This document shows positions 6,351 through 55,945 of a stretch of DNA of 57,801 nt, piece by piece. Origin of the DNA: an uncultured Elusimicrobiales bacterium (GTDB lineage Bacteria > Elusimicrobiota > Elusimicrobia > Elusimicrobiales > CAZFMJ01); the NCBI GenBank assembly GCA_964520045.1, contig CAZFMJ010000004.1, positions 5,131 through 62,931 on the forward strand. Reading direction: 5' to 3'. A program made the position numbers and the translations under genes. Each line of letters opens with the position of its first letter. The stretch's first letter is position 1. The notes below the pieces were generated by a model. That model saw only the letters and a program-made list of their open reading frames with translations. It did no database searches and was not told the DNA's origin.

Positions 6351-6365
6351 GGCCTGCTCAAACAT

Positions 6366-34323: not shown

Positions 34324-37300
34324 TTACTGATACCTGCTGTCCTTTACTACCGCCATCTTGAAGAAATCCTTCTTACCATCGAGCTTAATCTCGCCTATGT
34401 ATACGCCGGAGGCCACAGGCTGGCCCGTCTTATTGACTCCGTTCCAAGCATACACCGTCGTCTGGCCCGCGGTATAGGGGAGCGTATCGTCCCACACAAG
34501 TTCGCCGGCCATGTTGTATATTTTGAGAAGCAGATTGCCGCTCATTCCGGCGGGCACAAAAATCCGTATGCAGGTGCCTCTTGTGACGCACTGCGCGCCG
34601 GCCGTATATCCGCCCATTCCGGCAAGCATATTCGTGCTCTTGGTTTTAAGGCTCAGATTAAACGGATTCGGGAAGTTATAAGCCTTAAATTCCGTTCCGG
34701 TATACGCCACAGTGGAACCAACAACAGGAGCAACTGTAACCAGAGTGGAATAGAACACGGTGTATACGGACATATGGCCGATATTGACGGAGATGGTGTT
34801 ATTGAACGGATCTACCGCCTTGCCGTCCTCTTGTATCTGATACGAACAGGAGGAACAGGGCAGATAATAGACATTGAGCATGTCCGGATTATTGGTGGCG
34901 GTAGATTTAGTCAGGTCATATGAAAGCGTTATCCTTGCCTTTTTCTGCAAAGTATGGCTTATTCCAGCAGGCAGGAAGAAATCATAGAAAGAGCTGAACG
35001 GAGTATAGTTAGTCGCGCTTCCTGCGCCTCCGGCCTGAGCTTTATATCCGCCTCCATCCTGATTTTTAACCGCAAGGATAGCCCCATAAAGTTCCACCGG
35101 CAATCCTTTGGAAGCGGCTATCTTAGCGATATTTTCACCGTCATCGTATTTTGACACGGACACCGTCGTAAACGCGTTTCCGCTGTCTTCGAACCTGCGT
35201 ATGACCACGGTCACGGTGGTATTCACCACCGCATAAGTGCTGCCTTCCAAAGCAAAACTGCCGGCTTCAAATTCGGCGGAAGTATGCTCTGTCTCGGTGG
35301 AAGCGGATTCAAGCTCCACCATGCCTCCGTTCATGTTCGTAATCTTCTCCTGCGCCCCGGCGCTTATGCCGGTATAGAAGTCGAACGTTTTGTATATCAT
35401 GAAATTCGCCCGTTCAAGGCTGTTGGGATCTATTTCATTGATATACGCGGAGGAGATTATTATCTGGAATCTGTTCTCTCCCGCCCCCGGCTTATATGCG
35501 GCCGTCATCTGCTTGCGGTCAAAAGATATTGTTTTTGACCCTAATACGAAACTGCCGGTTCCCGAACTCAATATTATGGCATCGAGATCATTATCCGAAG
35601 GCAGTCTGTTCCTAAGCGCTTTTGAGCAGGTGAATTTAAGCTGGAACTGCGTGGCGCCGGCCAAATCCAAAGTCCTCTTGGTTGTGGCGGCGCAATCGCC
35701 TATCGCCGGCCTGAAAGTAAGAATCTGGCCGGGAACAGAGGCTGTCGATTCAGCCTGAGTGAACCTTACCATCCCCTCCACGGGAAACACTATATCGCCT
35801 CCAAACGGCGGCACAAGCGCCATGACATAAGTTATATCGGGCTTAAATCCGGAGATGGCATACTGATCCACCGTGTTGGATTCGGAATTAACCAGCACTG
35901 TGCCCACGACAAATTCCGTAAATCCGTCATTCGCGGCGACTATCATGCCTATCTCGTTCGCACTGGGCGAAGTCCACCCACCGGGAGCGGTTGTATCCGG
36001 CTTGCGTATCGCGCCTGAAATAGTGGCTCCTTTTTCAAGCACAACAGAGCCGATATCCTTGCTTCCCGCCTGCGTTATGGCGAAAGTGGCGTTAGTAACC
36101 GCATAGTTGAGGCTGACCGCCCTTATGGTATACGTGCCTACGGAAAGACCCAGCACCTCAAATCTTCCGTCAGGGTCGGTTATGGCCTCTATATCGCCCA
36201 TAGGATTATTCTTGGGCAGAGTGCCGTAGGGCTGTATAAACACTGCGGCCACCGGGAATCCCCTCATATCCCCGAACGGATAGGAAAGAGGCCCGCTGTC
36301 TACGGTGACAATCGTTCCCTGCAGATCTCCGCGCATCTGTTCAAGGCTGAAATTGACCTCCGTGGTTTTGGTCAAATCGATAGCACGTTTAACGGTTTCC
36401 TTGTAAACTTCCGTGGAACCGGAAACATTTGCAGTCTGCTCTCTGGGAGCCGCCGTAATATCAAAATACCTGGAAATATAGGTGGATACCCACACGCTGT
36501 ATCTGCCGTCCCTATTGGTCATGGTCTGTATGGTCATGGGATTGACCACATAAGAAGGCTTCGCCAGCATCTTTACATTAGCCAGAGGCGCTCCGCCGTC
36601 GGAATTTACAACAAGCCCGGTAAGCGCCTGACCCTGATTCAGGTCAAAAACCCCGAGGTCCCGTGTTTCTCCGGCGACAGGTTTAATTCCTGTTTTTATA
36701 ACCGGCGAATAGTTCTGGGCGCCCTGCCTCATGTAGCCTATGTCCCAGCTGGTCTGTTCGCATCTGACGTCATAATAGATGTCGGGCAGAACGGGACCTA
36801 TTTTAACGGTTCCGTCATATTCCACCGGCCTGCCTATCCCGTTTACGGTAACGCTGGTTCCGGACAGATAATACCCGCCCTGCACCCATGGATTCGATAT
36901 CGCGTAGCAGGAGAAGTTCGGAGCGAGCAGAGACGCGTTGTTCTGCGCGATTATAGACACTGTGTTCATGTCGCGAAGCTTAAACTTCAGGAACGCGCCC
37001 TGCTTTAATATCACATTCTGATTGCTCAGATTCTGCTGGAGACCTCCGGTTACGGTAACATCCGGGAACTTTATAGGCGAAGCCACGTATTTGACCGTTC
37101 CGCTGGAATCTTTCACATCCCTTACCTGCAGGGTATAGTACCCGCCCCTTTGCAGGCCGGCCATCGAGTAGGCCGCGGAATTGGAAAGAGTATTGGTGAA
37201 CACGTTGCCCAGCATGGCGGCAGTGGAACGCACTACCTGATTACTGTTATTGAGCAGGGTAAGCTGAAGCGACCTTGCGTCCTGAATATCATTGGCTATG

Positions 37301-40300
37301 GAGATATTCCCGCTGACATCAACCCCGTCAAAAAGCGTGAAGTTGACGGCGCCGGTGGAAACGGCCGTTCCGTTTACCATCACGTTACCGGAAAGATAAT
37401 CCGACCTTCTGACGGTTACGATTTTTTCCTGCTTGGGCACGGATACCGCGCATGTCGCGCACAGCTGGAGAGGAAGCGTGCGCAGGGTATATACGCCTTC
37501 CTGCAGGCCTGATACGGTATAAGAGCCTGCCGCGGTGATATATCCTACCCTGGTGCGCATCGGATCATACGTGTCCGACAAAACTATGCCTGTCTGGGTC
37601 ATTTCCCTGCGCACGGCTTCAATCGGTATAACCGTTCCCACGGCATAAGCGGGGTATCCGGCTGCCAGAGTAAAGCTTGAATTCTGAACTATTTTCTGGC
37701 TGGTATTAAAATCCGGATTGCTTATCTGCGTAGCGACGACAGCTCCGGAAACTGCATACGTCTCGTCCCTCAGGTCTACAACGACATTGGTGACCGCGCC
37801 GTTTACCACCTTAAGCTGATAAGTTTTGGAACGGCCTGTCGCCTTGAACGTGAAGATGATCTCCATCGTCTGAGTCTCGAGCCCTTCCACTCTAAAAACA
37901 GCCCGCGAACCATTTATCACAAGTCCGGGAAGTCCTTCGCCTCCGGACGTGCCGGTTATGTCGGCCATATAGATTCCGCTATCCGTCGTCGCGTACGGGT
38001 TGTCTGAATTCAAAATGCGGCCGGTCATGGAAACCTGCTGGAAATCAGCCGCGGTCGTAGGCGCGCCGTTTACTGTTTCCGGCAGATAGATGGTTCCGTT
38101 TATCACGCCCGAAGCCAGCTCAAAAGAGAAATCTCCGGCATTATTTGTGACAGGCACGGGCACAATTTTCGGGAATCCGCCCGGCGTTGAAAATTCGCCG
38201 GGTCCGTTTGATCTTCTGTCCAGATTCGCGAACAATTGATAACTGGAATTGCTCTCCAGACCCGTTATTGTATAAGCGGAACTGGCTATTTGTTCGCTCC
38301 CCGAAACCGTTCCGGTAGACAGATACACTTCAGCCCAGCCGTTACTGAAAGTCGCCGGCGACCAGACATTTATCCATACCTTAAAGGCGCAGCCGTTATG
38401 CTGGCCGTCTATGCACTCAGGCTTGGTATCAAGCAGTTCGAAATTAGACATGGCGGACGCGCTTCCTTTTATCGACACTGTGCCGGTTATCTGCCCGCCC
38501 GTATTAAATTCCGGCAGATCAACTACGCGGTCGGTATATGCGACCACCACGGGAAAGGTGCTCGATACTCCCGAGAAACCCGGGACCTGTCCTCTTATAA
38601 CGTAGGTTCCAGGATCGACTCCGAACAGGTTATACGTGCCTGAGCTTAAATTCGGCTCAAGCCATATTCCGCCCCATGCGCCCTGATTGGAAGACGACAT
38701 GTCCTGCGGCATGGCATTGACCGATATCCACGTGCCGTTGGCATTAAGAGCGCCTGCCGGCAGTTTTACAAGCCCTGAGACATTGGCTTTTCTTGAGAAA
38801 GGAGACAGGTTTACCACAGCTCCGATACTGCCTACGTATGCCGTAGCGCTTACATTTCCGTAGCCGTATAACTGTGCATCCACGGTATATGTTCCGGCTT
38901 CCACGTCAAATCTTATGCGGCTGCGGTACACAATTTGACCCGTTGACGCGTCCCAACTTCCTCCATCGTCGAAATTAGTGGTTCCGCCTATAAGCCGAAG
39001 TCCTCCGTTATATACGCGGTCCCAATTGTCGGTGTGAACATTTATCCAGCCCCATTGGTCGGCCGTATTAGAATTCACTCCCGAAAACGACGGTATGAGT
39101 ATAAGGGCGGGGGCTCCCCTCATTGAAGCATTGCGCGTGGCGCCCGCCGCGTTGACAATAACATTCGTCGAAATACTCGCGTATTCCGGCTTTGTGAACT
39201 GGAAGTTATAAGTTCCGGCGGCAAGCCCCGGTATGGAATAATTTCCGTTGGAATCCGTTACAGTCTGACCCCAGCCGGACGGACCGCTCGCATTTATATT
39301 TACTCCGGCAAGCGGCCTTGAAGGAACAACTCCCGCGTCAAGAACCCGTCCGGAAACCTGCGGAACAGTTACATCTATGCGCAGATCCGTGTTTGAAAGG
39401 CTCCCTACCTCTATTTTCACATAATAGACGCCTGAAGGAACTACCGAACCATAATTAATCCACGGACTGTAGTGTCCGTCCCAGACTACCTGGCCGAGAT
39501 ACGGCTGTCCCCAGCCCCATGATTCCCATATAGCCGTCGTAGTTACGCCCTCGCGGAAAGTTCTTGAAGAAATAATCACATGCCAGCCTATACTCGGATC
39601 GCTGAGCGCAAAGTTTATATACGCGCGGGCATTATCCACAGGATTGATCGTTATCTGCGTTAAGGCGGAATTATAAGTTCCGGTTGAGATATTAGCTCCC
39701 GTAATAGCCTGGCCGGCCATAACCTGCACGCCCATATAGGACGTATTCGCATATCCTAGATTATAGGACAAAGCGATATTATGGAATCCCGCGGTAAGAG
39801 GCCTGACATGGAATGTGGCCGAAGACACTCCGGCGGGAATAGTTATCCCCGTCTGTCCAGCGGCAAGAGCGGCCAAACCAACGTTGCGGGAGAACTGCAT
39901 ATTGGGATCAGCGGCAAACGCTCCTGTCGCGTAGTCATAACTCTGTCCGCTTACGGTGGCTACCGTCACTCCGGCAAAAGGCGCCGGGTTCCAGCACATG
40001 TCCCGTCCCTCCACCACCATAGTTGAGATTGAGTTTGCTGGCAGAGTGATGTTATAGGAATTTTCGCTTCCTGCCATGCGCATTGAAATATTTGCCGCTG
40101 TTCCGGCCACAAGCGCGGATGACGGCTCGCCGTTTACTAAAGGCGCCGGCGTTGAACCGGATTTGGACGTGCCCACATGGAATACCGCAGTTCCGGTTTC
40201 GCACGGAGAATTCAACCCCTTAAGCATTATATAAACGGACGCGCCTTCAGACAGAGACTGGCCCGCCGCAAGACGAATTTCGGCGCCTGAACCGAATGAA

Positions 40301-46300: not shown

Positions 46301-49300
46301 ACATACGGATACACCGTGGTTCCGCCTACAAGTGCGACCGAGGTGCTTGCTGCGACCTGCAGACCGCTTTCATTCCACTGCTTGGCTTCAATTGTTATAC
46401 TGCCGGAAGTTAAACCATCGTAAGTAATCGTTCCCATTACGGTCGCGGTGGTAGAGCCGGTTACAGCATAACTGATGAAAAGCTTGCCGAATGTGTCATT
46501 GTAAGAGCAGTTGTCGCACTTATTCATGCCGAGCTTCAGTCCGCCTCCGAAGCCGGTATATTGCAGAGTCGTGCCCGTGCCTACGTATATCCACGGGTTA
46601 TTCCCGATTCTTGCGATAAGCGCTCCGAGAGGCGCCCCCGGAACTATCCCGCCGTAAGTATTTCCGCCCCGCGCGTCAACCTGCGTTCCCTGAACAGTCC
46701 ACTGTCCGGTGGCCGAGATAGAAAGAGTCTGCCCGCCGTATATATTCACGTCCATGTACGCTCCGCACCATTCGCTGTAGCACACCGCAGCGCTCGCGTT
46801 TACGGACGGCTTAACCGTGCGGATACCCGAAGTTATGGGCGCGAACTCCGACACCTGCCCCTGCGTAAGACCCATACCGGAGCTGGAAACTATCACGCCT
46901 ATTGAATCATCGTTTTGGACCTGGCCGGGATTAATTACTCCGGCGGTTATGAGAAAATACCGAGTGGCCGCTGTGACCAAAGGCGGCGCGGACAGATGAT
47001 CGAGGTCGATTACAACCGGTGCCGTGGAAGACGCCGTGAAATAGCCGTTCCCCGTCCATTCATCGTCATAATCGCGCATGCCGTTGCCGTTGTAATCCCT
47101 GTACACGTCTACTTTAAAAGAACTCGGATCGCTTGTGCCTGCAGGAAGCAGACTTAGGTATTTAAAATATGCGTCAAGCCCGTCAGTCCAAACGCCTAGG
47201 TTAAGGATAGGCTCCTCGCTCTCATATGTGTTTTTGGACATATATCCCGAAAACGGCTGATAAGATACAAACATTGTTCCGCCCGGAACGGCCGTTCCCG
47301 AGGATATTTCCAGATTAACATTATCCTCCACAACTCCCGCTGTCGCTGTTATATTGGGTCCGAACTGTCCGCTGCCTTCAAAAGAATCCCACGTTTTGTC
47401 TCCGTCTACGTCCGTGAATACGCGGACGTAATAATCAGAGCCCGGCGCGACAGGGATAGAATACGGCATGTAGGGATAGTACCCCGGGAACTCAATTTTA
47501 TTAGCAAGCAGTCCTCCGGTGGCATGCCATGCTTCCACAATTATCCAGCCCTGCTGATCTCCGTTTTTAAGGATGGTGCCCGCGAATGTCCCCTGATTGT
47601 CAAGAGTTATATTTTTTCCGGTCTGAACCAAAGAACCCTGGGCAAGATATATGCCCGTGGCGCCGTATACTTCACCGGGCTTGCCGTAGCTTCCCTGCGG
47701 ATTATTATTGCCGTCGGCATACGCGTAGACATAATAAGTAGCCGGGGCGGTCAAGTCAACGAAATGATAAGTATGTGGGAAAGAAGGCTGTGCGGATGAA
47801 TACATCAAAACGTACGGATCAGTCGGGTTGTTCGAAGTGCTCAAATACACGTAAAGAGACCCGCCCGTGGAACCGGAATAAGAAACCTGTCCCTCTATTT
47901 CGCCTCCAGACAAACCGCCTTCGGGCGACCATGTCACATAGTTATTGGGGTCCATGCCTCTTTCGTTTACGGAACCCATTTTCGGTCCGCTTGCATTTGT
48001 CATGACAAGATTAAACGAATAAGCCGCGCCCGCCGTGTTTACGTTCGTTGAAACCGAGCCGTCAAAATTCCAGTTATTGAACGTAAGGTTCGCCCCTGAC
48101 GGCGGATTCAGTATTAAAGCCGCTACCCCCGGCTGGAGCCCCATGAAGCTCACATTGTTCATCACGGCATTGCCCGTGTTAAGCGTAATGCCCAGCACAT
48201 TGTCAAAGGTGGTGCCTCCCGCGCTGTTTACCGTGACCGTCCCGCCCAGTATGTATATGGGATATTGCCCGTAATCTACGCCGGATATGAAGGCTGAGGA
48301 AGCCCCTCCGCTCCTGAACGTTCCGGAAGAAGTCACCGTCAGTCCCGCTGAGCCGAGATACAGCGGGCTGTTCGAATTTACCGCGTTCAAAAAGAGCGTT
48401 CCGTTGGAAGCGCCCCCTACGGTGATTCCTCCTTTCGCCTGCAGTGACTGGCCGTTAGTGTCAAGCGTTCCGCCCTGAATATCGATGGCATTATCCACGG
48501 TAAGCTGGTTAAAAGACGGGCTCTGCACTATTCTCACCGTTCCGGTGAACGACGGCCCCAGAGTGAGGCTCTTGGACGTGTTCCAAAAGATATCCCAGTC
48601 GCACTGTTTATCGGCATTTGTCCCCACTCCATCGAATACGACATCATCGCCGTATCCCGGCGGCATATTGCCTTCCCAGTTATTAGCGTCCGTGGCGTAA
48701 TCAGTGACTCCGTTTCCGGTCCATCTGGCCGCTTTGGCCTGTATCCATGCCTTAAAGAAAAGTTCTCCGTAATTGCCGTCATAATAATCATCGTCGTTCA
48801 TCGCAAGGAACAAATCTCCGCTGTTTTCTCCGGAACTTATCGTACTGGAAACGCCTATTAATTGCCATGCTCCGGAATAACCCACTCTCGCGACAAGAGC
48901 TCCGCGCGGAGCGGATTCAATTTTACAGCCCGCGGAACAGGAACCGCTTCCGGCAGGCCCCGTTTCCCCGTAACTGCCGCCGGCGCTCCATGTGCCGGTC
49001 GATTCAATATTCGCGGTCTGGTTATAACCCACCCAGAAATTGCCGTAATTTTCATAATTTCCGGCAAATACGCTGTTCGAAACTTCCATTTGCGCGGAAG
49101 TCATAGGATAACTGCCGTCCGCAATATATCCCTTGCTCAGAGTGAAAGCGTTCTTGGATTGGATAGAAACGCTTACCGTTTTGCCCAAGGCTGAAAAATT
49201 ATTCGGCCTTGCAAGCACATAATAAACGGACGGCGTCGTAGTAATGACTTCGTTTGAATACGTGGTTACCGTAAACGTGGAAACCCCCATATTCCATATG

Positions 49301-52300
49301 TTGCCGACCATCTGATCGTCGTAATAATTATACTTGCCGTCTCCGTTTATTTCTTTGGCTATTGCAACGTCGCTTATTTCATTGTTGGCCATGACTACGC
49401 TGCCGACTATATTAAGCTCAATGCCGTTAAAATATGCTTCCCCTGAATTGACGGCGAGAGTGAACTTAAGCATCGGAGCATCATTATACAGCTTGCCGTA
49501 AGGCAGAGCGGCATTCACGGCAGTGACGGTCATCGTGCCGGCCTCAACCGGCCCGCCGCCGCCGAAATTGACGGTTATGTAATTCGGAACGCCGCCGGTA
49601 ATCCAATTATCGGATGAAGTCCCGTTAGGTTCTCCTTCGTCGTAAACATTATTCATATTATTGTCTACGAATGCGAATGCCGTGACCATAGAGTTGAAAT
49701 AAGTTGAAGGAGGAAGCTCCGTATTCCAAGGCGAAGCGGGGGCCATTTCCCTCAGCATTTCGTCGGGAGTGAGCAAAAATTCGAGATATGCCGTACCGGC
49801 CGGCTTGTTGTTCATCGTAACCGCAACGGGAGCAGGATCAACTATAGTGATAGTCCCGCTTCCAAGTCCGCCTTCGGGCACGAAAATTCTGGCTATGCCG
49901 AACGGCTCGCCTGTATTTCTCTGCATCTGGAAATTACCGTCTGTGTCCCTGAACGCAAACACATAGTAAGTCGCCGGGGCAGGCAGGCTGAAGAACTGAA
50001 AATTGGTGTCGGGCTGCAAACTCGGATTGGAAACCATGCGCCCGTATCCAACGCTTGAAACCAAAACCACGTAATCGCCCGAAGACCCGGAACCCTGAAA
50101 ATCAATCAAAGCCTGTAGATTGCCGGTTCCTCCCCCTCCTCCGCCCGTGAATTCGGTATACGGGAACTTGCCCGTGCTAACGTCATATTCATTTTCAGCG
50201 CCGCCCAAATACGTGCCGGCGGCATAAACATTGCCTATTGAATCCAACGCAATTCCTCCGGGCTCATAGCTCTGGTCAAAACTCTTTATGGCAGAAGCGA
50301 TATAGCCCAAATCGGCGTCAAATTTGCCAACTACCACATCGTCGTTGGTCATTCCGTCATAGGTATTGCCCTGGACATATATGTTTCCGTCCTGCGCAAT
50401 CTTTATAAAGGCCGCGTCGTCGGCGCCGTTCCACTGATAGAAAGCGGTCTGCGCAAGGCCGGAATTATAGCGCACAATTCCGATATCCCTGCCGTTTTGA
50501 GCGCTGGGCACGGCTCCGGTAAGGAACAACTCTCTGGTGCTGTCCTTGAAAGCTATGCTCATCCAGCTGTGTTCGCTAAAATACGCGTTTGTATATGCGC
50601 CTGAAGACACAAATGCAAGAGAAGAATTCAATTTAGCCGTGACGTAATTAGTTGTCCCGCCTATAAAGTTATACCCCGCCAGATAGACGCTGCTGTCGGT
50701 ATTATCAACCGCCACACCGTAACCTTCGTCATTTCCGCCGGCGTCAAATGTGCCGAGAACAGGAGACGCGAGGTCATAGCTATATTTCACGAATTTATAG
50801 TCAGAAGGCGGGCCCATGTGCGGTCCTGCCTCCGACTCCGAGCCTATCACATAAACATTACCCGAGTTATCAACCGTTATTCCGCGCGCAGAAGCGTCGC
50901 CTGAAAGCACTGCGGACGAGATAAGAACGAGACTGTCGTTATATCTGTATGTGCCAAAACCTGTGTCCGCTATCTGTCCCGTAACATAAACGCCGTTATT
51001 GTTTACGGCTATGCCCGTTGGGTACAATTCGGTTATTACCGCATGCGCCTGCTTATTTCCCAAAGTATCATACTTGTAGACTATTCCGCCGATACCCGAA
51101 GATATAGCTATGCCGTACACGTAGCCGTTGTTATACGCCAACCCCTGAGCCATATCCATATCCCCGCCGTCGTACACCGCGCCGCTAGTCTGGTTGAAAT
51201 CTCCCGAGAAAACCGGCGTCCCCCCCCCGCCTCCTCCGCTGAAAGTCAAAACAACGGGATTAGAAGCTGAAGAAGACGCCCATACCGAATAGGTGACGGA
51301 ACTTTCGCCCGCGTCATACTGTCCGTTTTCGGGATTATTGTCCACAAATGCGTTAATGGTTACGTCGTAGCCGAAATAGGGAGACGGCATAACTCCGGTT
51401 TCAAAATACGAATCCGTGGTAGATTCAATATACCCGCTGTACCCCGGAATGTTGACAAATTCAGCTATGACTCTGTCTCCGGCCGGCTTATTACTAAGCG
51501 TTACCGCCATTACGGCTGGGTCGACCACATTTAGCGGAGTGCTGAACGAACCGGCAGTCCCCATGTAATACGACATCCAACCCATAGGTTCGGTAACCGC
51601 GTCTTTCTGGTAGCTTCCGCTCGAGTCCGTGTCCCGCGAGGAAAAAATAAAGTAGGTTGTATTTGAAGAGAGCCCCTTGAATGTGCCTGACGCGCTGGGC
51701 GAGTAAACATACCCCGCGCCGGTATACGGGTCCCCCAGATCGGTGGAAAGGACTATCGAGTAATTGCCCGCATTCACCGAGCCGAGATAATTTAAATTGA
51801 CCGTCAAATCCGAAGTCCCGCCGTAATAGCGCTGTGTGACGGGCATATTGACCGTTGTGGTGGCATTCTCAACGACAGAGAGACCGAGACTGCTTAATCC
51901 GAAAGTTTCACCCGCATCGGGACTTCGGTTGTCATTCCGGTCAAAATAGGCGAACACCGCATAATCGGTACCCGGCACTATACCCGAAAAATCGTATAGA
52001 GCAGTGTATACGCAGGTAGAACAGTTAAAAACCGTATTTACATACAAATGCTCGTCGTCTTCAACGACCAACGAGCCCGCTAAAGGATCCCCGTGAACCA
52101 ATGCGACCCGGAAATTTCCGCTATTCAGACCAAGATTAAGAGTTCCCGCAACCGAGCCCATCTCATGTAAATCAATTGAGCCGGCATCCACTACGGTATC
52201 CGAAGCCGCCGCCACAGCCACAGCATTGGTGTTAAAATACGCCATCGGTCCCCATGTGCCTTTATATCCCAAAGGCTCAAAACCCCTTGGCTCCATGTCT

Positions 52301-54615
52301 CCATTTTCGTCTACGAAGGCAAATATGTACAGGTTTGCCGGAGCCGGCACGTTATACACCGTAACGGGAGCGCCGGACGAAACAGCTGACATATAGATAG
52401 GAGAACCGTCTATGTTATCCATGAATGCCACATAAAAATTCCCCGTATGGGAACCGGAGTAATTTATGGTCATGTTTATCGACCCTGTCGCTGAATATAT
52501 GGTGAAATCATGGCCGGAGCTGGTCTGGCCCACCCCGACTTCCATACCCCCGCTTTCTATCTGGCCGTTCATGTCCGGATTTCCAAGAACATATCCCGTT
52601 ATCTTTGAACTGCGGTCAGCCTGCACCGGAAGCGAATACGCATACTGCGTTGTTCCCCCCGCGAGCGGGATAACGACTGAGCTGACAAGAACCTCATCGT
52701 TTCCGGACAGCCATTGCCATGCTTTAACCACAAGACTGTCTCCGGGCCTGTCGCCGGCAAAGGTTATTGTTCCCGCCAGATTTCCGTACTGGATAAGCTG
52801 GCCGGTATTAAAATTGAAAGTATACGGCGTGTCCATACACATGCCTTCCGAGCAGAAACTCTGAACTTTGACCATATACTGCGTATAGGGATCCAGATTA
52901 CCGCCGGTCAGGGTTATTCTGTACCTGTATTGGCCGGGAACGGGCATATCCACGAACTGAAAACTCTGAAACAGCGAAGTATAATTAAAATTGCTGCCGT
53001 CCATGGTTTTTCCAAACTGCAGATAAGAGCCTATGGCTGAATTGTCATAGGGATATACAAAACCCGTAAAAATGACATCTATGCTTGAGAGGCTGGGGGA
53101 AACGTTCGTGGCGTCGTACTGGGGCAGGGTGTCCCCAACCGACGGATTCATGACAGCGGGCGGAGCGGAAGCGAATGCCCCTGTAGACACATAATCGGCG
53201 TACTTTGCTGTGTTATAGCGCCATGAAACTATAACTCCGTTCTGGGAATCAGTAACAGCAGGCTGACCCGACCCATAATAAGGCGGCATGGAACCGGAAA
53301 CATCCACAATAGTCCCCAATGCGCCGGTTGCGGCGGAAACTCTTGAGGCAACTATATGCCCGTTGTTATGCGCATAGCCGGCTATATAATAATATCCGTC
53401 CTTATACAACAGTCCGTCCCCGCTATTGCGCTGTCCGAAAGGAACATCCCACACCGGCGAACCTCCCCCGCTTGACACTCTTGCGATATACTCCGCCGAA
53501 GTGCTCCAATTATCCGGAGCCGCTATTGTGGAATAAACAACCGCAAGACCGCCCGGATCAACCGCTACTTCTTCCGGGGAAGCCCATTTGCCCTCAGCTC
53601 CGGCCGCTATAAGCTGGCCTCCGCCGTCCCCTATTGTAAACGCGCCTACGGCATTGCCGTCAGCGTCCACATGCGTCGCGTAGACTTCGGTATAATTGCC
53701 CGCCGCCCTCGTGTCATCCCATACGATATAAAAACCGTCATTTCCGTCTTCCAGAACATCCAATTCGTCTAGCGCCTGGTCGCCCGGCCCGGTAACAAGC
53801 GGTTTGCTCCATACCAAAGAGCCCGAGGCGGACCATTTTGCCCCGTATATGTCCATACTGCCCAAATCGTTTGAGGTCCACACAAAATACCCGCTTCCCG
53901 CAGTTGCGCCTCTTATCAATCCGGCATTGCTTAAGTTGGCCGCAATCAAAACAGCTCCGGTGGAATTATGCACGCAGTCCGCGTCGGCCGTGGGCCATTG
54001 GCAGTTTCCGCTGGAATCCAGCCTCTGAACCACACCGCCGACTCCCTCAATCCCCATGCCGACGGCCGCCCCGCCGTCAAGCGTTTCTATAAGTTCCCCG
54101 CCGCCGGCATAGCCGGGAGACACCTGCTTCGGCCCCCACACAGACATCCCGTCCGGAGCGATCCTGTGCAGGAATATCCTTGAAGGGAACTCGTCTCCCA
54201 CCGACGTCCCTTCATATTCCTGCCAGAATATAATAATGCCGCCCGAGCCGTCGCCTACGGGACTGGCATGACTGCCCTGGGCATTGGTCGAAACGCTTAC
54301 TCTCATCGGCACGCCTGAATTCCACATCAGCGCGCCCGTGAGACTCACATGCTGAGCGTACATCTGGGGATAACCGGGATGCTCCGGCGCAGTGGCGGAC
54401 CATACCTGATAAAAACCGCCGTTTCCATCGGCAAGATAATAGGTTTCAGAGTCATTGTCATTAAAATCATACCCGGATGAAACCGTAATAGGCCATGAAG
54501 CATGCGCCTGCCATGCGGTTCCCAATGCAATGCATAAAATTAAAGCCGCGCCTTTGGCGGCGGCTTTCAAATTTGAATAAACCTTTTCAGTCTTGTTTAA
54601 CGTAATTTTTTTCAT
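34324..54615 (-). CDS. Giant (6,763 aa) secreted multi-domain surface protein / putative adhesin with FlgD-Ig/T9SS-like C-terminal domain
   Basis: Uninterrupted 20.3-kb ORF; Sec signal ending AHA|SW; beta-propeller-like repeats, Ig/FN3-like, PPC-like, LecA-like and carboxypeptidase-regulatory-like modules; about 20 DxNxN-type loops; C-terminal YNFPNPFN...KIYNMAGELV...WNGVN..GQPVASGVY. Confidence 0.9.
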   Translation of the reverse strand: MKKITLNKTEKVYSNLKAAAKGAALILCIALGTAWQAHASWPITVSSGYDFNDNDSETYYLADGNGGFYQVWSATAPEHPGYPQMYAQHVSLTGALMWNSGVPMRVSVSTNAQGSHASPVGDGSGGIIIFWQEYEGTSVGDEFPSRIFLHRIAPDGMSVWGPKQVSPGYAGGGELIETLDGGAAVGMGIEGVGGVVQRLDSSGNCQWPTADADCVHNSTGAVLIAANLSNAGLIRGATAGSGYFVWTSNDLGSMDIYGAKWSASGSLVWSKPLVTGPGDQALDELDVLEDGNDGFYIVWDDTRAAGNYTEVYATHVDADGNAVGAFTIGDGGGQLIAAGAEGKWASPEEVAVDPGGLAVVYSTIAAPDNWSTSAEYIARVSSGGGSPVWDVPFGQRNSGDGLLYKDGYYYIAGYAHNNGHIVASRVSAATGALGTIVDVSGSMPPYYGSGQPAVTDSQNGVIVSWRYNTAKYADYVSTGAFASAPPAVMNPSVGDTLPQYDATNVSPSLSSIDVIFTGFVYPYDNSAIGSYLQFGKTMDGSNFNYTSLFQSFQFVDMPVPGQYRYRITLTGGNLDPYTQYMVKVQSFCSEGMCMDTPYTFNFNTGQLIQYGNLAGTITFAGDRPGDSLVVKAWQWLSGNDEVLVSSVVIPLAGGTTQYAYSLPVQADRSSKITGYVLGNPDMNGQIESGGMEVGVGQTSSGHDFTIYSATGSINMTINYSGSHTGNFYVAFMDNIDGSPIYMSAVSSGAPVTVYNVPAPANLYIFAFVDENGDMEPRGFEPLGYKGTWGPMAYFNTNAVAVAAASDTVVDAGSIDLHEMGSVAGTLNLGLNSGNFRVALVHGDPLAGSLVVEDDEHLYVNTVFNCSTCVYTALYDFSGIVPGTDYAVFAYFDRNDNRSPDAGETFGLSSLGLSVVENATTTVNMPVTQRYYGGTSDLTVNLNYLGSVNAGNYSIVLSTDLGDPYTGAGYVYSPSASGTFKGLSSNTTYFIFSSRDTDSSGSYQKDAVTEPMGWMSYYMGTAGSFSTPLNVVDPAVMAVTLSNKPAGDRVIAEFVNIPGYSGYIESTTDSYFETGVMPSPYFGYDVTINAFVDNNPENGQYDAGESSVTYSVWASSSASNPVVLTFSGGGGGGTPVFSGDFNQTSGAVYDGGDMDMAQGLAYNNGYVYGIAISSGIGGIVYKYDTLGNKQAHAVITELYPTGIAVNNNGVYVTGQIADTGFGTYRYNDSLVLISSAVLSGDASARGITVDNSGNVYVIGSESEAGPHMGPPSDYKFVKYSYDLASPVLGTFDAGGNDEGYGVAVDNTDSSVYLAGYNFIGGTTNYVTAKLNSSLAFVSSGAYTNAYFSEHSWMSIAFKDSTRELFLTGAVPSAQNGRDIGIVRYNSGLAQTAFYQWNGADDAAFIKIAQDGNIYVQGNTYDGMTNDDVVVGKFDADLGYIASAIKSFDQSYEPGGIALDSIGNVYAAGTYLGGAENEYDVSTGKFPYTEFTGGGGGGTGNLQALIDFQGSGSSGDYVVLVSSVGYGRMVSNPSLQPDTNFQFFSLPAPATYYVFAFRDTDGNFQMQRNTGEPFGIARIFVPEGGLGSGTITIVDPAPVAVTMNNKPAGTAYLEFLLTPDEMLREMAPASPWNTELPPSTYFNSMVTAFAFVDNNMNNVYDEGEPNGTSSDNWITGGVPNYITVNFGGGGPVEAGTMTVTAVNAALPYGKLYNDAPMLKFTLAVNSGEAYFNGIELNIVGSVVMANNEISDVAIAKEINGDGKYNYYDDQMVGNIWNMGVSTFTVTTYSNEVITTTPSVYYVLARPNNFSALGKTVSVSIQSKNAFTLSKGYIADGSYPMTSAQMEVSNSVFAGNYENYGNFWVGYNQTANIESTGTWSAGGSYGETGPAGSGSCSAGCKIESAPRGALVARVGYSGAWQLIGVSSTISSGENSGDLFLAMNDDDYYDGNYGELFFKAWIQAKAARWTGNGVTDYATDANNWEGNMPPGYGDDVVFDGVGTNADKQCDWDIFWNTSKSLTLGPSFTGTVRIVQSPSFNQLTVDNAIDIQGGTLDTNGQSLQAKGGITVGGASNGTLFLNAVNSNSPLYLGSAGLTVTSSGTFRSGGASSAFISGVDYGQYPIYILGGTVTVNSAGGTTFDNVLGITLNTGNAVMNNVSFMGLQPGVAALILNPPSGANLTFNNWNFDGSVSTNVNTAGAAYSFNLVMTNASGPKMGSVNERGMDPNNYVTWSPEGGLSGGEIEGQVSYSGSTGGSLYVYLSTSNNPTDPYVLMYSSAQPSFPHTYHFVDLTAPATYYVYAYADGNNNPQGSYGKPGEVYGATGIYLAQGSLVQTGKNITLDNQGTFAGTILKNGDQQGWIIVEAWHATGGLLANKIEFPGYYPYMPYSIPVAPGSDYYVRVFTDVDGDKTWDSFEGSGQFGPNITATAGVVEDNVNLEISSGTAVPGGTMFVSYQPFSGYMSKNTYESEEPILNLGVWTDGLDAYFKYLSLLPAGTSDPSSFKVDVYRDYNGNGMRDYDDEWTGNGYFTASSTAPVVIDLDHLSAPPLVTAATRYFLITAGVINPGQVQNDDSIGVIVSSSGMGLTQGQVSEFAPITSGIRTVKPSVNASAAVCYSEWCGAYMDVNIYGGQTLSISATGQWTVQGTQVDARGGNTYGGIVPGAPLGALIARIGNNPWIYVGTGTTLQYTGFGGGLKLGMNKCDNCSYNDTFGKLFISYAVTGSTTATVMGTITYDGLTSGSITIEAKQWNESGLQVAASTSVALVGGTTVYPYVFSGIPGQRSSMIFAHVSSDEAQMGGYPGDLWLEPGAVRAGIDFRVNPGAGTINSTLSYSGAQTQGVVTAVLFKSFESQPVYTSTCSAAGEPYSAVGTFSLPNVPGPDQYYMAVFIDFNNNGEPDGPEPLGYFGNPGPLSQIGANAVQVAVASAATVNVPSITLYDMGQINGTLALGQLHGEVGVEVWHGAPGGLSSVRENWKEYYVEMCGWTGCANQLEYSLGTLSPGSDYAVFAYVDDNKNRQFDAGEKFGVSQLNLSVSANAVTFANMSIQETLVPPPPPSLTGVAEDVSQIRWTWQDVLSETGYKLLDSTGGFITSLPANTTYYLEDIGTGNTAGAIRGIKSANSYGDSNAVFVPQPVYTLAVIPSVEIVSRTESSIGINLSISGNSAGTRYGIQRSTSSSGGFVTVLAGTAPVAGYLDEGLSPSAAYYYRARTFNAANIASGFSDPMSASTVTLMGAGYSIAGAIIYSGQQSGPIIVRAFTGADFTGLVKSISLQGGNEYYLGDLTNGVNYYVRAFVDVTGDGIKTTNEDSGVAANPINVTGAMAGKNISLMRDTIAPKMPTLLTASAGFMTVNLSWTASVSGDALGYEIERSTSNTFAGNVMRISSSAPAGYATGTAYTDNNPVTGVYSYYRMRTLDWGMNVSSWTSPASVRATSGGSITGIVHAYDTASQGSYHVRVSTSPDANISSIADIIVSTSPNTYTVTGLSDGVYYMRGYRDVNGDFTQSRRNEPSGTHGGIARPFDLYVTQGNTITGKDLIVCNRVPLAVGVSTVTAISEAACRALDRGPDYYTRIFTFEVGYGAGKVTPGSQLNITANAVNGGFSDSYLYLIGPSGDVVTQDDDSNGNGNARINYTVQEEGIYLLEPTSFSPASSGDVEVAMNITGGYNGMVSGTVGYLGSPYANQGQVYVQVFNNLDPYAWPMRFVTASSTGTFEIEGLQDGNFYLKAYWDINNNSMRDAFEPYGYHGSSAPAAFNVSGGLTTDSLNIIMTDPPMGAVSGTLSYTGSKTGNIRIEAGKVRSDCPDCGTRDLDIKKFTYLYSVDRSTTAAYTLTLLEPATQYYIRAYMDLNSNNEKDVLEPYVSSGTINIIAGSTATGVNLLLRDPGTGTTGNSNISGYVHYTPSAGSVSTGTVWIGWALDDEFDNVPYWTTSSSRSVSGGTASWYYSKTNILGNATYYMAAFLDLNGNGLPDDMTLGEPLGFYGTGGEFAPLYIPVSSNAAANVTVQEPAKGSLSGTIYYSNSNTNYGAVRVEAWVENCQGNGCGNRTQINWAQGVASYPFTLNFMGASTSYHLYAFMDTNNSGNHDQGEPNAWSDTSYTVAEGLPTAGVQLNMFDPGQFIGVENIGRISGLVSYSGQQAGSIIVRMFDNAGRTGAPVRTFNTCPAGSSCSYEFLNLSGGMYYLDAYMDTSANGIYDGSFEAYGIIGNSAGINISPAFNQIFDQNGNINDPAYVLVSTGSRAISGAISVLSQNTAGKVRIQLFRYNADKEVMRYPIRSIAENYTQQPVFYSFTDVDDGNYLVQAFLDSNDNYWPDSPQEAWGQSKTVDLGTLVPASGVNFKACYRASIQSGVQVVGSLAASDCVSPERPSSYLDYYTFEGRNGDVVTIEMTGTGFSDKYLYLYRPSTEETGTPHYYNLAASAEPDYVTGNAAISAFTLRETGQYVIGATSLGGAITGEYRLSLNTSGSATGAIAGDARYNGTQGGMIRVGLFNTTDLKNSEPLRGTDMTVSGPFNFTGLPTGSTYYIAGFMDVNLDGNINDGEDFGVYGPSLDNPTPIVLRAGQNISGLQFAINTTTVTPQGPVPAVISGFISYTGAFAGTLRVEAWNDSKFQGYPVAVRSVETGYWPTAYDMQLPGNSQYYFKAFLDMNGNAMPDANEPKGAYQPNNQGPEPRYVSEGEEASGVDFALYDPGISGGDVKGEGWASILPAQIPAGSMFDSTITVRVGPNGLSQNGVIAFSLPFNFYGGLQTGCPQCSNYVSFSTGGAVNPPIAALNSFGSGAEIRLAAGQSLSEGASVYIMLKGLNSPCETGTAVFHVGTSKSGSTPAPLVNGEPSSALVAGTAANISMRMAGSENSYNITLPANSISTMVVEGRDMCWNPAPFAGVTVATVSGQSYDYATGAFAADPNMQFSRNVGLAALAAGQTGITIPAGVSSATFHVRPLTAGFHNIALSYNLGYANTSYMGVQVMAGQAITGANISTGTYNSALTQITINPVDNARAYINFALSDPSIGWHVIISSRTFREGVTTTAIWESWGWGQPYLGQVVWDGHYSPWINYGSVVPSGVYYVKIEVGSLSNTDLRIDVTVPQVSGRVLDAGVVPSRPLAGVNINASGPSGWGQTVTDSNGNYSIPGLAAGTYNFQFTKPEYASISTNVIVNAAGATRNASMRGAPALILIPSFSGVNSNTADQWGWINVHTDNWDRVYNGGLRLIGGTTNFDDGGSWDASTGQIVYRSRIRFDVEAGTYTVDAQLYGYGNVSATAYVGSIGAVVNLSPFSRKANVSGLVKLPAGALNANGTWISVNAMPQDMSSSNQGAWGGIWLEPNLSSGTYNLFGVDPGTYVIRGQVPGFSGVSSTFPVVVAYTDRVVDLPEFNTGGQITGTVSIKGSASAMSNFELLDTKPECIDGQHNGCAFKVWINVWSPATFSNGWAEVYLSTGTVSGSEQIASSAYTITGLESNSSYQLFANLDRRSNGPGEFSTPGGFPKIVPVPVTNNAGDFSFELASGVINGTIYLPETVNGAPTTAADFQQVSMTGRILNSDNPYATTDSGIYMADITGTSGGEGLPGLVINGSRAVFRVEGLETQTMEIIFTFKATGRSKTYQLKVVNGAVTNVVVDLRDETYAVSGAVVATQISNPDFNTSQKIVQNSSFTLAAGYPAYAVGTVIPIEAVRREMTQTGIVLSDTYDPMRTRVGYITAAGSYTVSGLQEGVYTLRTLPLQLCATCAVSVPKQEKIVTVRRSDYLSGNVMVNGTAVSTGAVNFTLFDGVDVSGNISIANDIQDARSLQLTLLNNSNQVVRSTAAMLGNVFTNTLSNSAAYSMAGLQRGGYYTLQVRDVKDSSGTVKYVASPIKFPDVTVTGGLQQNLSNQNVILKQGAFLKFKLRDMNTVSIIAQNNASLLAPNFSCYAISNPWVQGGYYLSGTSVTVNGIGRPVEYDGTVKIGPVLPDIYYDVRCEQTSWDIGYMRQGAQNYSPVIKTGIKPVAGETRDLGVFDLNQGQALTGLVVNSDGGAPLANVKMLAKPSYVVNPMTIQTMTNRDGRYSVWVSTYISRYFDITAAPREQTANVSGSTEVYKETVKRAIDLTKTTEVNFSLEQMRGDLQGTIVTVDSGPLSYPFGDMRGFPVAAVFIQPYGTLPKNNPMGDIEAITDPDGRFEVLGLSVGTYTIRAVSLNYAVTNATFAITQAGSKDIGSVVLEKGATISGAIRKPDTTAPGGWTSPSANEIGMIVAANDGFTEFVVGTVLVNSESNTVDQYAISGFKPDITYVMALVPPFGGDIVFPVEGMVRFTQAESTASVPGQILTFRPAIGDCAATTKRTLDLAGATQFQLKFTCSKALRNRLPSDNDLDAIILSSGTGSFVLGSKTISFDRKQMTAAYKPGAGENRFQIIISSAYINEIDPNSLERANFMIYKTFDFYTGISAGAQEKITNMNGGMVELESASTETEHTSAEFEAGSFALEGSTYAVVNTTVTVVIRRFEDSGNAFTTVSVSKYDDGENIAKIAASKGLPVELYGAILAVKNQDGGGYKAQAGGAGSATNYTPFSSFYDFFLPAGISHTLQKKARITLSYDLTKSTATNNPDMLNVYYLPCSSCSYQIQEDGKAVDPFNNTISVNIGHMSVYTVFYSTLVTVAPVVGSTVAYTGTEFKAYNFPNPFNLSLKTKSTNMLAGMGGYTAGAQCVTRGTCIRIFVPAGMSGNLLLKIYNMAGELVWDDTLPYTAGQTTVYAWNGVNKTGQPVASGVYIGEIKLDGKKDFFKMAVVKDSRYQ

Positions 54616-54706: not shown

Positions 54707-55945
54707 TTAAAATTCGTAAGAAAATCCGAGCAAATACGTTGTCACGTCAAAATTATATCTGTAAAGCTTTTCATACGACATATTCGATACCTGCTTCCCG
54801 TACTGAAAGGAAACCAGCCCCTTAAAACCCGGAGCAAGCGGATATGACGCCGAAGCCGAAAGAAGCCACTCATTCATATAAATGCTGTCTGTTCCGTAAA
54901 GGCCCGCCGAATCCTGAATCGGCCTTTTGGAATATTTCGTCCTTCCCACACCGGCGCCCGCCCTGATCTCTGTAAATTTTTTATCGTCATTTGCTAAAGG
55001 GATCTGCACCGCCATATCGACTCCGAACCTGTACTTGTTATAATTGTAGTAATCCGCCAGATAGGTCGTTCTCTGCGCGTCATAGCTGTTCTGGTTGGAG
55101 CGGTTTGCCAACAGAGTAAAACCGACCCCAGGAATAAGCTTCACGCCTTTGGCTGTTTTGTTCGGCACTTTCCAACTTAAATCAAACATTCCCATGGTAT
55201 CGTTTCTTGTGCCTGTTTCAAACTGGCCGGCGGTGTTAATCACATGCTGTTCATCATACGCCCTTGCGGTTAAATTGCCGGATACCGCAAGAACCGACCC
55301 CCCGGCATTTCCGGTTACGGAAAAAGTGACCCCATGGTTTACCGAATTAAGCACCTCAGAACCTGCCATTTCTCTGGCAAGACTGCCCGCCGACTGGCCC
55401 GCTATCTGGGATTCCAAAGAGGTGTAATTAAGAAAATTGATCAAATAAAAATCATATCCCAAGCGCACTGAAAACGGATCATTATAAAGGTATTCGCATT
55501 CAAGCGAAAAAGCGGGTTTATGATAGTCAAAAAGCCCTTTGCCCCATTTTTCATCTTTTGTTTCCTTTAAAAGATCCCATTTAAACTCCGCTTCCGGCTT
55601 TATCCTTAATTTCGGAGAAATCGAATATATTCCCCGCACGGCCACCTTATGGTCCATCCTTTCCTGGAAAAGCGTACCGCCTCCCACCAAATCAGTAACC
55701 TGTTTTGTGCCCTGATATCTTCCGCTATATAAAGGAATAAGGGTTAACTCTCTGGACATTTTGACGGAAGCCGAAGCAAGGGCGCTTGCATTCCCGGAAA
55801 GCGCTCCCTCCTGCCCCGAAAAGAAATACTGCCCGCCCAAAAACGAGGCGTTGAAATAAGGAGTGACTTCGTAAGCCGTAAGCGGTAAGTTGTAAGCGGT
55901 AAGTAAAAAAACAACCAAAGAAAATAAGCGTGTGTAAAATCTCAT
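54707..55945 (-). CDS. Putative outer membrane beta-barrel protein
   Basis: AGGAGG RBS, signal peptide, Tyr/Phe/Gly-rich alternating strands, C-terminal LGFSYEF (BAM-type aromatic end). Confidence 0.75.
   Translation of the reverse strand: MRFYTRLFSLVVFLLTAYNLPLTAYEVTPYFNASFLGGQYFFSGQEGALSGNASALASASVKMSRELTLIPLYSGRYQGTKQVTDLVGGGTLFQERMDHKVAVRGIYSISPKLRIKPEAEFKWDLLKETKDEKWGKGLFDYHKPAFSLECEYLYNDPFSVRLGYDFYLINFLNYTSLESQIAGQSAGSLAREMAGSEVLNSVNHGVTFSVTGNAGGSVLAVSGNLTARAYDEQHVINTAGQFETGTRNDTMGMFDLSWKVPNKTAKGVKLIPGVGFTLLANRSNQNSYDAQRTTYLADYYNYNKYRFGVDMAVQIPLANDDKKFTEIRAGAGVGRTKYSKRPIQDSAGLYGTDSIYMNEWLLSASASYPLAPGFKGLVSFQYGKQVSNMSYEKLYRYNFDVTTYLLGFSYEF
55871..55905. repeat. Heptamer tandem repeat (GTAAGCG x5) inside a signal-peptide coding region
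   Basis: gtaagcc gtaagcg gtaagtt gtaagcg gtaagta, encoding ...LLTAYNLPLTAY... Confidence 0.85.

Follow-up and report, generated by a model that had tools for sequence, protein, structure and literature searches.

In the secretion system of type IX (T9SS) of Porphyromonas gingivalis, PorU and PorZ retain their C-terminal sorting domains (CTDs), and two outer-membrane barrels, PorV and PorQ, hold them at the surface. The adhesin SprB of Flavobacterium johnsoniae carries a CTD of another type (type B) and is partnered by a PorP/SprF-like barrel. Here we analyse a giant gene of an uncultured groundwater Elusimicrobiota bacterium, the product of which ends in a tail that appears closest to the CTDs of PorU and PorZ, and which is adjoined by a gene for a PorV/PorQ-family barrel. 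It lies on the minus strand of a 57,801-nt stretch of DNA, hereafter the window. Coordinates are positions in the window, and residue numbers are those of the giant protein.

Four published sources are of direct concern. A 2024 review assigns the T9SS to the Fibrobacteres-Bacteroidetes-Chlorobi group (PMC11205867), outside which the Elusimicrobiota lie. PorV has been described as a shuttle (PMC5562754), and the Elusimicrobia are listed among the phyla rich in proteins of more than 5,000 amino acids (aa) (PMC11573180). The fourth source is a preprint on microbial GAIN-like “MAIN” domains (Brogan and Rudner, 10.64898/2026.05.12.724683). In the parts of it used here, these domains cut between the F and the S of an HFS motif, the fragments remaining associated; they lie between ectodomain and anchor, mostly in sortase-anchored proteins of Bacillota, and release of enzymes from the surface is proposed. 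The terms T9SS, type IX and Elusimicrobi have no occurrence in this preprint.

The reading that we favour, with moderate confidence, is that the giant is an adhesin fibre anchored on the surface, tipped with lectins and equipped with a breakaway joint, which a four-gene cassette makes and holds in place. An adhesin or surface-scaffold role had already been proposed in a first-pass annotation made from the letters of the DNA, and it gains from two LecA-type domains, a T9SS-type tail and outer-membrane barrel genes on both sides of the open reading frame (ORF). The elements at the two ends of the giant are the following:

34324..54615, minus strand: giant ORF, 6,763 aa (714.8 kDa, isoelectric point 4.47), a single open frame from ATG.
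54499..54615, minus strand: probable Sec signal peptide, residues 1-39, with a Lys-rich start, the hydrophobic core AALILCIALGTAW and AHA/S at its end (read from the translation).
34741..34998, minus strand: pre-CTD domain of ZU5/GAIN (MAIN) type, residues ~6540-6625, predicted from alignment, profile and AlphaFold2 (AF2) model.
34768..34776, minus strand: HMS (His6614-Met6615-Ser6616), candidate HX(S/T) self-cleavage motif at a predicted beta-hairpin turn.
34327..34701, minus strand: CTD, residues ~6639-6763, with the T9SS CTD fold.

The C-terminal tail and the domain that precedes it

A profile built from 17 tails retrieves the CTD of P. gingivalis PorU first (E 2.2e-5) and that of PorZ next (E 9.7e-5), both above FlgD. 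For the last 270 residues AF2 gives a model with a mean predicted local distance difference test score (pLDDT) of 73, which rises to 85-96 over the CTD. When this model was used in a fold search the closest structures were again the PorU and PorZ CTDs, the best matches having 25-27% identity, and the substrate CTDs of mirolase and NucA came lower in the list. The structure search returns the T9SS CTD beta-sandwich at the place where the first-pass annotation had put a CTD. In sequence and in modelled fold the tail of the giant is closest to the uncleaved CTDs, i.e. it looks type-A/PorU-PorZ-like. It belongs to a CTD family of its own genome that comprises 25 ORFs, 16 of them passing TIGR04183; Por_Secre_tail (PF18962) is not listed for the giant.

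The ~85 residues before the CTD were aligned across 11 orthologues and 6 paralogues, the latter from the same genome. All 17 tails have H-x-S/T, with an invariant His and a Ser or Thr two residues on: HFS in 11, HLT in 3, and HMS (the giant), HLS and HAS in one each, the middle residue being hydrophobic throughout. Among these tails are the six paralogues, with 14-19% identity over the pre-CTD domain and 19-25% over the 270-aa tail. In the AF2 tail model the motif stands at the hairpin turn between strands 114-121 and 124-129 (pLDDT 66-87). The pre-CTD profile aligns with residues 496-612 of a 708-aa relative, P0280, at an hhalign probability of 98.6% (E 6.8e-16), HFS falling on HFS, and P0280 passes the Pfam family ZU5 (PF00791) in the matched region (25.5 bits, cut-off 21). 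The domain is placed between the large ectodomain and the surface-anchoring CTD (6639-6763). By homology and by analogy with MAIN domains it is a probable ZU5/GAIN-type self-cleaving module. An Atlas look-up of the pre-CTD piece gave clusters without a name only (0.91-0.92), which we take as a lead.

The four-gene cassette

The giant is the third of four genes that follow each other on the same strand: a FecR-domain gene, a gene for a 412-aa barrel, the giant and a PorV/PorQ-family barrel gene. Its three companions are:

55989..57575, minus strand: FecR-domain secreted protein of 528 aa, first gene of the cassette (PF04773, 61.8 bits; LipL45/Lsa33-like N-terminus).
54707..55945, minus strand: 412-aa protein that belongs to no known family, 91 nt upstream of the giant; it starts with a signal peptide and ends in a ...GFSYEF beta-signal.
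33275..34228, minus strand: PorV/PorQ-family outer-membrane barrel gene, 317 aa, 95 nt downstream of the giant (NF033709, PF19572).

The downstream barrel matches NF033709 over its whole length (1-326 of 326) with 154 bits for a cut-off of 90. It stays under the equivalog cut-offs both of PorQ (80 bits, cut-off 220) and of PorV (67 bits, cut-off 250). The 412-aa protein is probably, from its sequence, a second outer-membrane barrel. It has no match in Pfam or NCBIfam, and its profile has 0 matches against the PDB. In the Atlas it falls into unnamed Elusimicrobiota clusters and into one (score 0.97) in which 19% of the members carry SlipAM, the surface lipoprotein assembly modifier; a Slam-like translocator is a lead at most. 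Promoter and terminator scans around the cassette gave counts equal to or below those of shuffled sequences.

The arrangement is not private to the window. Four other genomes (G092, G090, G144 and G086) also have a giant immediately preceded by the FecR-domain gene and that of the 412-aa barrel. In three of them (G092, G090 and G144; loci L014, L016 and L018) a second cassette follows in tandem right after that of the giant, made of a FecR-domain gene, a barrel, a paralogue of ~3,600 aa and a PorV-like gene; with this query no second copy is found in the genome of the window. G072 and G182 likewise have frames of ~3,600 aa that match the paralogue. In each of the nine related loci that extend far enough, the next ORF after the cargo is PorV-like. 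The 412-aa barrel was found in 67 of the 201 sampled genomes of the phylum, and in none of those of two families of small genomes (0/58 and 0/63). By reading two tables against each other, we count ~21 loci in 17 genomes where this barrel lies upstream of a C-terminal match on the same contig and strand; G112 and G200 are not among them.

Cargo-barrel pairs in the genome and the export route

The pairing of a cargo with its barrel recurs throughout the genome of the window, where 25 ORFs end in the same ~110-aa CTD and 23 ORFs are PorV-like. Fifteen of the 25 have a PorV-like gene that begins at most 300 nt downstream on the same strand, and two more were missed solely through overlapping maximal ORF calls. 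PorU and PorZ offer the parallel of CTDs retained by barrels, and the gene linkage is one to one; we therefore propose that each barrel may serve as the permanent anchor of its neighbour.

For the passage of the outer membrane the candidate is a SprA-like protein. The genome has a partial SprA-like ORF of 936 aa that runs off a contig end (C74:3-2810, minus strand), with 109 bits against TIGR04189 (E 8.9e-32, cut-off 200). SprA_N (PF14349) gave no match and its control was silent too, so TIGR04189 was used instead. Frames of 1.7-1.9 k aa that match TIGR04189 collinearly at several places occur in 77 of the 81 genomes sampled from the phylum. The PorV family is present in the genome, and a type-IX-like translocon seems, from such matches, to be there in reduced form.

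A wider proposition is at best tentative, and we would sooner doubt it than rely on it: free-living Elusimicrobiota might share, across the phylum, a T9SS-derived display system with a short SprA-like translocon and no recognisable GldLM motor or PorU sortase, in which each cargo would have a private PorV/PorQ-like barrel as its permanent anchor. To this the giant fibres would add a new barrel, a FecR-domain partner and a ZU5/GAIN-type self-cleaving joint, giving a 700-kDa lectin-tipped fibre held non-covalently and shed under force.

Some details of these loci are recorded here in their own right. Several PorV-like ORFs reach 430-690 aa, the barrel taking up the first ~300 residues and a C-terminal extension the rest. 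At one further giant locus (C5:25733-66722, minus strand) a frame of 11,104 aa reaching the contig end overlaps by 23 nt a CTD ORF of 2,565 aa, after which comes a PorV-like gene. At another (C2:23106-56687, plus strand) ORFs of 1,765 and 7,658 aa are followed by a CTD ORF of 524 aa and a PorV-like gene. A frame at C89:3-2513 (plus strand) has a weak match to positions 1392-1469 of TIGR04189 and no NCBIfam match at E<=0.01; this fragment may be the C-terminal part of a split SprA/Sov-like gene.

Integrity of the reading frame

The 20.3-kb frame consists of 6,763 uninterrupted codons, with a Shine-Dalgarno-like AAAGGTGA a few bases 5' of its ATG (read from the sequence). The source genome is a metagenome bin of 2.96 Mb in 144 contigs, 99.45% complete. 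Misassembly is common in repeat-rich giant genes, and we therefore weighed whether the ORF could be chimeric, with several shorter genes or strains joined in it, the more so as the bin is fragmented and the depth of the public contigs low (~3-7x). The self-comparison of the gene by blastn leaves a single off-diagonal match, of 49 bp at 77.6%; the statement of the first-pass annotation that this one long ORF lacks recent DNA-level repeats therefore holds, and there are no DNA repeats available to misjoin. The GC content is even, between 0.50 and 0.53 throughout the ORF. Logan contigs from two public runs cover 30 of 30 bins of 34500-54499 at >=99% identity, unbroken across the ORF, and over this interval they show neither variant letters nor indels, and no joints or loose ends. 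The two runs are two samples of one groundwater metagenome study and may be the own source of the assembly, so that this cover is a consistency check, not independent proof. Collinear giants of 5.2-8.4 k aa moreover exist in independent genomes. The giant gene is real, and a chimera is extremely improbable.

The protein is acidic and enriched in Gly, Ser, Thr, Asn and Tyr. Its repeats are visible at the protein level, where a piecewise self-search gives 52 non-overlapping pairs with 23-45% identity; older segmental duplications link residues 613-928 with 2726-3046, 941-1179 with 1504-1740, and 1837-1954 with 2603-2714. The 43 Cys are mainly close-paired, which suggests short disulphide staples in many of the modules. 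The spacing within such pairs is 3-6 residues, e.g. 865/868, 1893/1897, 2612/2617, 3799/3802, 4749/4752, 6587/6590 and 6676/6682.

Elsewhere in the window the only tRNA is a tRNA-Tyr (GTA) at 12334-12417 on the plus strand. The remaining right half holds housekeeping genes, those for NAD-dependent DNA ligase, PurH and GlnA, for an aminotransferase and an alcohol dehydrogenase, for a response regulator and for a GH57 branching enzyme with DUF4912.

The conserved stalk

The modules of the proximal part are listed below, HMM standing for hidden Markov model:

34327..45618, minus strand: conserved collinear stalk, residues ~3000-6763, common to related Elusimicrobiota giants.
44911..45198, minus strand: FN3, residues 3140-3235 (PF00041, 28.4 bits).
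44299-44592, minus strand: second copy of FN3, residues 3342-3439 (own HMM, 2 copies).
43672..43989, minus strand: PPC-like domain 1, residues 3543-3648 (Pfam and own HMM).
41266..41583, minus strand: PPC-like domain 2, residues 4345-4450 (PF04151, 27.2 bits, cut-off 25.9).
39361..40533, minus strand: conserved beta-rich region without family, residues 4695-5085, containing 4951-5085.
35356..39360, minus strand: CarboxypepD_reg/prealbumin-like sandwich region, residues 5086-6420 (PF13620, 59.7 and 40 bits).

The search for relatives was limited to proteins of 3.7-11.8 k aa. It gave ten giant relatives of 4,426-7,844 aa with 29-43% identity, and every source name among them that bears a taxon is Elusimicrobia or Elusimicrobiota. 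Residues ~3000-6763 are strictly collinear in seven of these (P0002-P0008; 30-64% identity) and largely so in two others (P0009 and P0010). When this part was cut into 150-aa segments (3001 to 6601), 24 of the 25 segments were matched in all of the seven. Conservation is highest at 4951-5250 and 5851-6300. Residues 600-3000 are by contrast patchy and rearranged among the ten relatives, and a segment-by-segment comparison finds residues 1-600 in none of them. That the head matches none of the ten while the remainder is collinear argues for a conserved stalk with a swapped head; from sequence, the giant is thus a conserved stalk that bears an exchangeable head and a shuffled distal part. The first-pass annotation had seen an old, selected architecture rather than expansion or misassembly. 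This stands for the stalk, which is collinear, and is in line with the lack of DNA repeats and with the clean contigs, but not for the N-terminal ~45%, which is not old and fixed.

The last 913 residues are matched end to end in roughly two dozen of the 201 sampled genomes, on frames of ~2,000, ~3,600 and 5,500-8,400 aa. The family looks like a core of ~2,000 aa lengthened at its N-terminal, distal end. In the closest relative among the sampled genomes (G086:C22) the C-terminal match lies on a frame of only 2,498 aa; the barrel gene of the cassette is found ~7 kb upstream, joined in the maximal ORF call to sequence that precedes it, over 772 aa in all. Breaks in the frame or peculiarities of the annotation may be at play here.

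Several domain names given earlier to the stalk are borne out by Pfam: the two PPC-like domains, also recovered by our own HMM, and the carboxypeptidase-regulatory-like modules, for which PF13620 has a match in 11 of 12 orthologue tails as well. For FN3, announced as three copies, two were found and the third was detected neither by Pfam nor by our own HMM. An internal FlgD-like domain placed at 4951-5085 has no Pfam match, though this stretch is among the best conserved of the protein (64% identity to P0002). The profile of the last 913 aa gave Ig-like or FlgD matches only. PF22904 (NOMO1-like_2nd, a sandwich) stands in a precomputed Pfam listing of the giant; it had no match in our own search and was set aside.

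Since it is the stalk that is conserved, its 3,700 residues could be the functional part, fixed by the barrels to the outer membrane as a structural component of the envelope (an S-layer-like coat, a sheath or a spacer) and not an adhesin. The expense would agree with such a role, three giant ORFs taking up 2.6% of the DNA of the genome. However, no lattice-forming domain is recognised in the giant, and variable, swapped distal heads that bear lectin domains are what characterises adhesins rather than proteins of a lattice. The relatives that share the cassette differ in length, from ~2,000 to 8,400 aa, so that a layer of fixed spacing fits poorly. We hold an envelope component to be quite unlikely.

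The variable distal part and its lectin domains

The elements found between the signal peptide and residue ~3000 are:

53176..54498, minus strand: N-terminal beta-propeller, residues ~40-480, ~7 blades (AF2 and Foldseek).
51259..52785, minus strand: first block of DUF2141-like acidic-loop beta-sandwiches, residues 611-1119 (Pfam and own HMM).
50170..51048, minus strand: second propeller, of SBBP type, residues ~1190-1482 (PF06739, 24.9 bits, cut-off 20.5).
48754..49107, minus strand: LecA/PA-IL-type lectin domain 1, residues 1837-1954 (profile match).
47911..48753, minus strand: segment labelled beta-helix-like in the first-pass annotation, residues 1955-2235, conserved in two relatives.
46474..46809, minus strand: LecA/PA-IL-type lectin domain 2, residues 2603-2714 (profile match).

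A profile of four copies, two of the giant and two of a related giant, aligns with residues 5-112 of 121 of LecA of P. aeruginosa (1l7l_A, E 1.1e-4), i.e. with the whole lectin, and more weakly with PllA (E 0.13). A LecA-like domain had thus been rightly named, and it is present twice. Pfam PF07828 has no match in the giant protein at E<=0.05. At a glance at the alignments, the Asp aligned to Asp100 of LecA is present in copy 1 and in the two relatives, and is replaced by Lys in copy 2.

The head has a hydropathy peak at residue 16, within the probable signal peptide, after which no Pfam family is found for ~440 residues. These carry a repeat of ~56 aa with the consensus DG.GG..W.D.R....DIYAQR. 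AF2, given 27 relatives as input, models residues ~40-480 as all-beta with pLDDT 75-92, and the top Foldseek matches of the model are all beta-propellers, some of them designed and others belonging to lectins, to BamB or to several enzymes. A propeller at the beginning of the protein, and the second one bordered by poly-Gly (visible in the translation), are hence well founded claims of the first reading. An HMM seeded on one blade (57-96, 284-323) also took up 6704-6734 in the CTD (E 2e-15 after iteration); the two places may have a short motif in common, or the match may be an artefact that arose because a single sequence was iterated. At E<=1e-3 the head has 1,789 relatives in a set of 1.84 billion representatives, and 4 of the 15 that were scanned end in FlgD_ig or Por_Secre_tail. 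This DIYAQR-type head has no match in the ten giant relatives, most of which start with SBBP-type propellers, and no paralogue in its own genome.

The acidic-loop beta-sandwiches noted earlier are DUF2141-like, with Pfam over the gathering score. An HMM built from the giant itself counts 24 such modules, reaching residue 5489; DUF2141 (PF09912) sums to 69.8 bits over residues 2201-4600, and single modules have 24.8-34.1 bits for a cut-off of 24.4. Two other labels found no backing. The Big_5-like Ig domain (~485-620) falls where the AF2 pLDDT is below 50, and the beta-helix-like segment (1955-2235) is without Pfam match or meaningful PDB match. For this segment a PDB-profile match proposed GAPDH as a relative (E 0.004), which we judged implausible.

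Pfam and NCBIfam assign only structural or binding modules to the giant, and PDB sequence searches with both of its halves gave just two marginal scaffoldin matches. The absence of a catalytic domain, as first stated, stands insofar as no hydrolase or toxin domain is found in the Pfam, NCBIfam and PDB sequence searches, but the probable self-cleaving ZU5/GAIN-type module had been overlooked. A scaffold for nutrient acquisition must nevertheless be weighed here: one of the propellers or a family-less region would hide a polysaccharide lyase or a hydrolase, the lectins and sandwiches would target polymers, and the joint would release the whole, much as the MAIN preprint proposes, in the parts used here, for surface enzymes (10.64898/2026.05.12.724683). 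The Foldseek matches of the N-terminal propeller do include PL24 lyases, a GH (BT3686), tetrathionate hydrolase and peptidase propellers, and residues 1955-2235, 4695-5085 and much of 5170-6420 have no assigned family. These propeller matches are however generic (TM 0.35-0.63, designed propellers ranking top), the precomputed Pfam lists of the ten giant relatives are as free of catalytic families as our own searches, and it is the stalk, not the head, that the relatives conserve. Such an enzyme-bearing scaffold appears unlikely.

Proposed mechanism and points that weigh against it

With the adhesin fibre as the favoured reading, the parts may work together as follows. The giant would cross the inner membrane by Sec, as its signal peptide suggests, and the outer membrane by a type-IX-like route, presumably through the short SprA-like protein of the phylum. 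Its CTD would stay uncleaved and bound to the downstream PorV/PorQ-like barrel, to judge from the likeness to PorU and PorZ and from the gene linkage. Some 6,000 residues of calcium-type acidic-loop and prealbumin-like sandwiches would form the conserved stalk, and in the variable distal part the two propellers and the two LecA-type domains would bind a glycan-bearing surface or cell, the nature of the ligands being our inference. By analogy with MAIN and GAIN domains, the ZU5/GAIN-type domain probably cuts between Met6615 and Ser6616, the pieces staying associated, and such a cleaved joint could let the fibre detach under force.

A number of observations weigh against this reading. For the joint, the middle residue of the motif in the giant is Met, not Phe or Leu; the PDB profile search does lay the motif on the GPS “HLS” of adhesion G-protein-coupled receptor B2, at a value that is not significant (E 1.8). 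The pLDDT of the pre-CTD domain is only 66-87, and all the rows of the fold search with the two-domain tail model fell on the CTD, so that no statement on the fold family of the pre-CTD domain comes from the fold search. For the tail, the own C-terminus of the giant is absent among the 18 TIGR04183 matches of the genome, and its scores lie below the curated cut-offs (FlgD_ig 26.9 bits for 27, CHU_C 19.8 for 27). By our criterion eight of the 25 CTD ORFs have no adjacent PorV-like gene (ten before overlaps were allowed for). None of the SprA-like frames passes the family cut-off (0/81), and they are ~500 residues shorter than the model. The PorU sortase body was not found in the genome, the match being confined to the CTD part. 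The propeller fold of the N-terminus also occurs in enzymes, and it may therefore conceal a cryptic activity. No RNA run is among the listed public runs.

GldL and GldM had no match in the genome either. This also counts against a type-IX-like route, but the positive controls were equally silent and the missing matches are therefore uninformative. They bear in the same way on another reading, that of a mobile gliding adhesin like SprB, in which a motor would move the fibre along the surface with the adjacent barrel as carrier. The giant has the size of SprB and, like sprB with sprF, combines a CTD with a cognate barrel gene. Against this, there are no motor genes within the cassette, and the tail looks type-A/PorU-PorZ-like whereas that of SprB is of type B. 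A gliding adhesin is very unlikely.

Significance

Giant adhesins, T9SS-type pairs of cargo and barrel, and MAIN domains are each known, and the giant is not categorically new. Its context is the point of interest: one-to-one type-IX-style cargo-anchor pairs outside the Fibrobacteres-Bacteroidetes-Chlorobi group, a near-universal short SprA-like gene and a conserved joint of self-cleavage type. No literature linking Elusimicrobia with type IX secretion was found (the search did not extend to supplements), nor any published description of the cassette in the literature searched. In an Elusimicrobia genomics preprint the words secretion, surface, adhes-, pili and outer membrane are all absent from the text. 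If the favoured reading is true, type IX secretion would have a wider range and more variety, a setting with a barrel as anchor, in a diderm, would be added for MAIN domains, and the uncultured groundwater Elusimicrobiota would acquire a concrete attachment organelle. Under the wider, tentative proposition made above, a MAIN-type breakaway joint would here be joined for the first time to an anchor of type-IX style in a diderm.

Comparison with known systems

A close parallel is the attachment complex of the P. gingivalis T9SS, i.e. the PorU-PorV and PorZ-PorQ pairs (PDB 6za2, 5m11). The tail of the giant is nearest to the PorU and PorZ CTDs by profile and fold, its adjoining gene codes for a PorV/PorQ-family barrel, and a retained CTD bound to this barrel would anchor it on the surface. 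Several differences appear: the giant would be a 715-kDa fibre and not a sortase or a lipopolysaccharide-delivery protein, there is nearly one barrel gene per cargo, and a PorU body was not found in its genome.

SprB-SprF of F. johnsoniae likewise joins a giant repetitive adhesin (~6,500 aa) to the neighbouring gene of a cognate outer-membrane barrel needed for surface retention. The barrel next to the giant is however of the PorV/PorQ family, not PorP/SprF, the tail is of the other type, and the cassette adds a second, unrelated barrel and a FecR-domain protein.

Calcium-dependent giant adhesins with repeats, known from Gram-negative bacteria (LapA, MpIBP type), resemble the giant in their general plan: a signal or an element for export is found at one end, modules that bind ligands stand at the other, distal end, and tens of diverged repeats, Ig-like or sandwich in kind and with acidic loops, make up a long stalk. 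They are secreted by the type I pathway and have a retention module at the N-terminus and RTX at the C-terminus. The giant has instead a Sec signal peptide and a T9SS-type CTD, and no RTX repeats appear in the Pfam and NCBIfam searches.

For the tip, the galactophilic LecA (PA-IL) of P. aeruginosa and PllA of Photorhabdus (PDB 1l7l, 5odu) are matched over the whole length of the lectin by the two domains of ~115 aa. LecA is a free tetrameric lectin, whereas the copies of the giant are internal modules of one chain.

For the joint, the comparison is with MAIN domains, as in B. subtilis YfkN, and with eukaryotic ZU5 (PF00791) and GAIN-GPS. As in the MAIN domains described in the preprint (10.64898/2026.05.12.724683), an HX(S/T) stands at a beta-turn, here a predicted one, and the domain sits between a large ectodomain and the surface anchor; it is moreover homologous to a domain that passes Pfam ZU5. 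The candidate motif of the giant is HMS, and where the MAIN proteins are mostly sortase-anchored and from Bacillota, the giant would have a T9SS-type CTD as its anchor, in a diderm.

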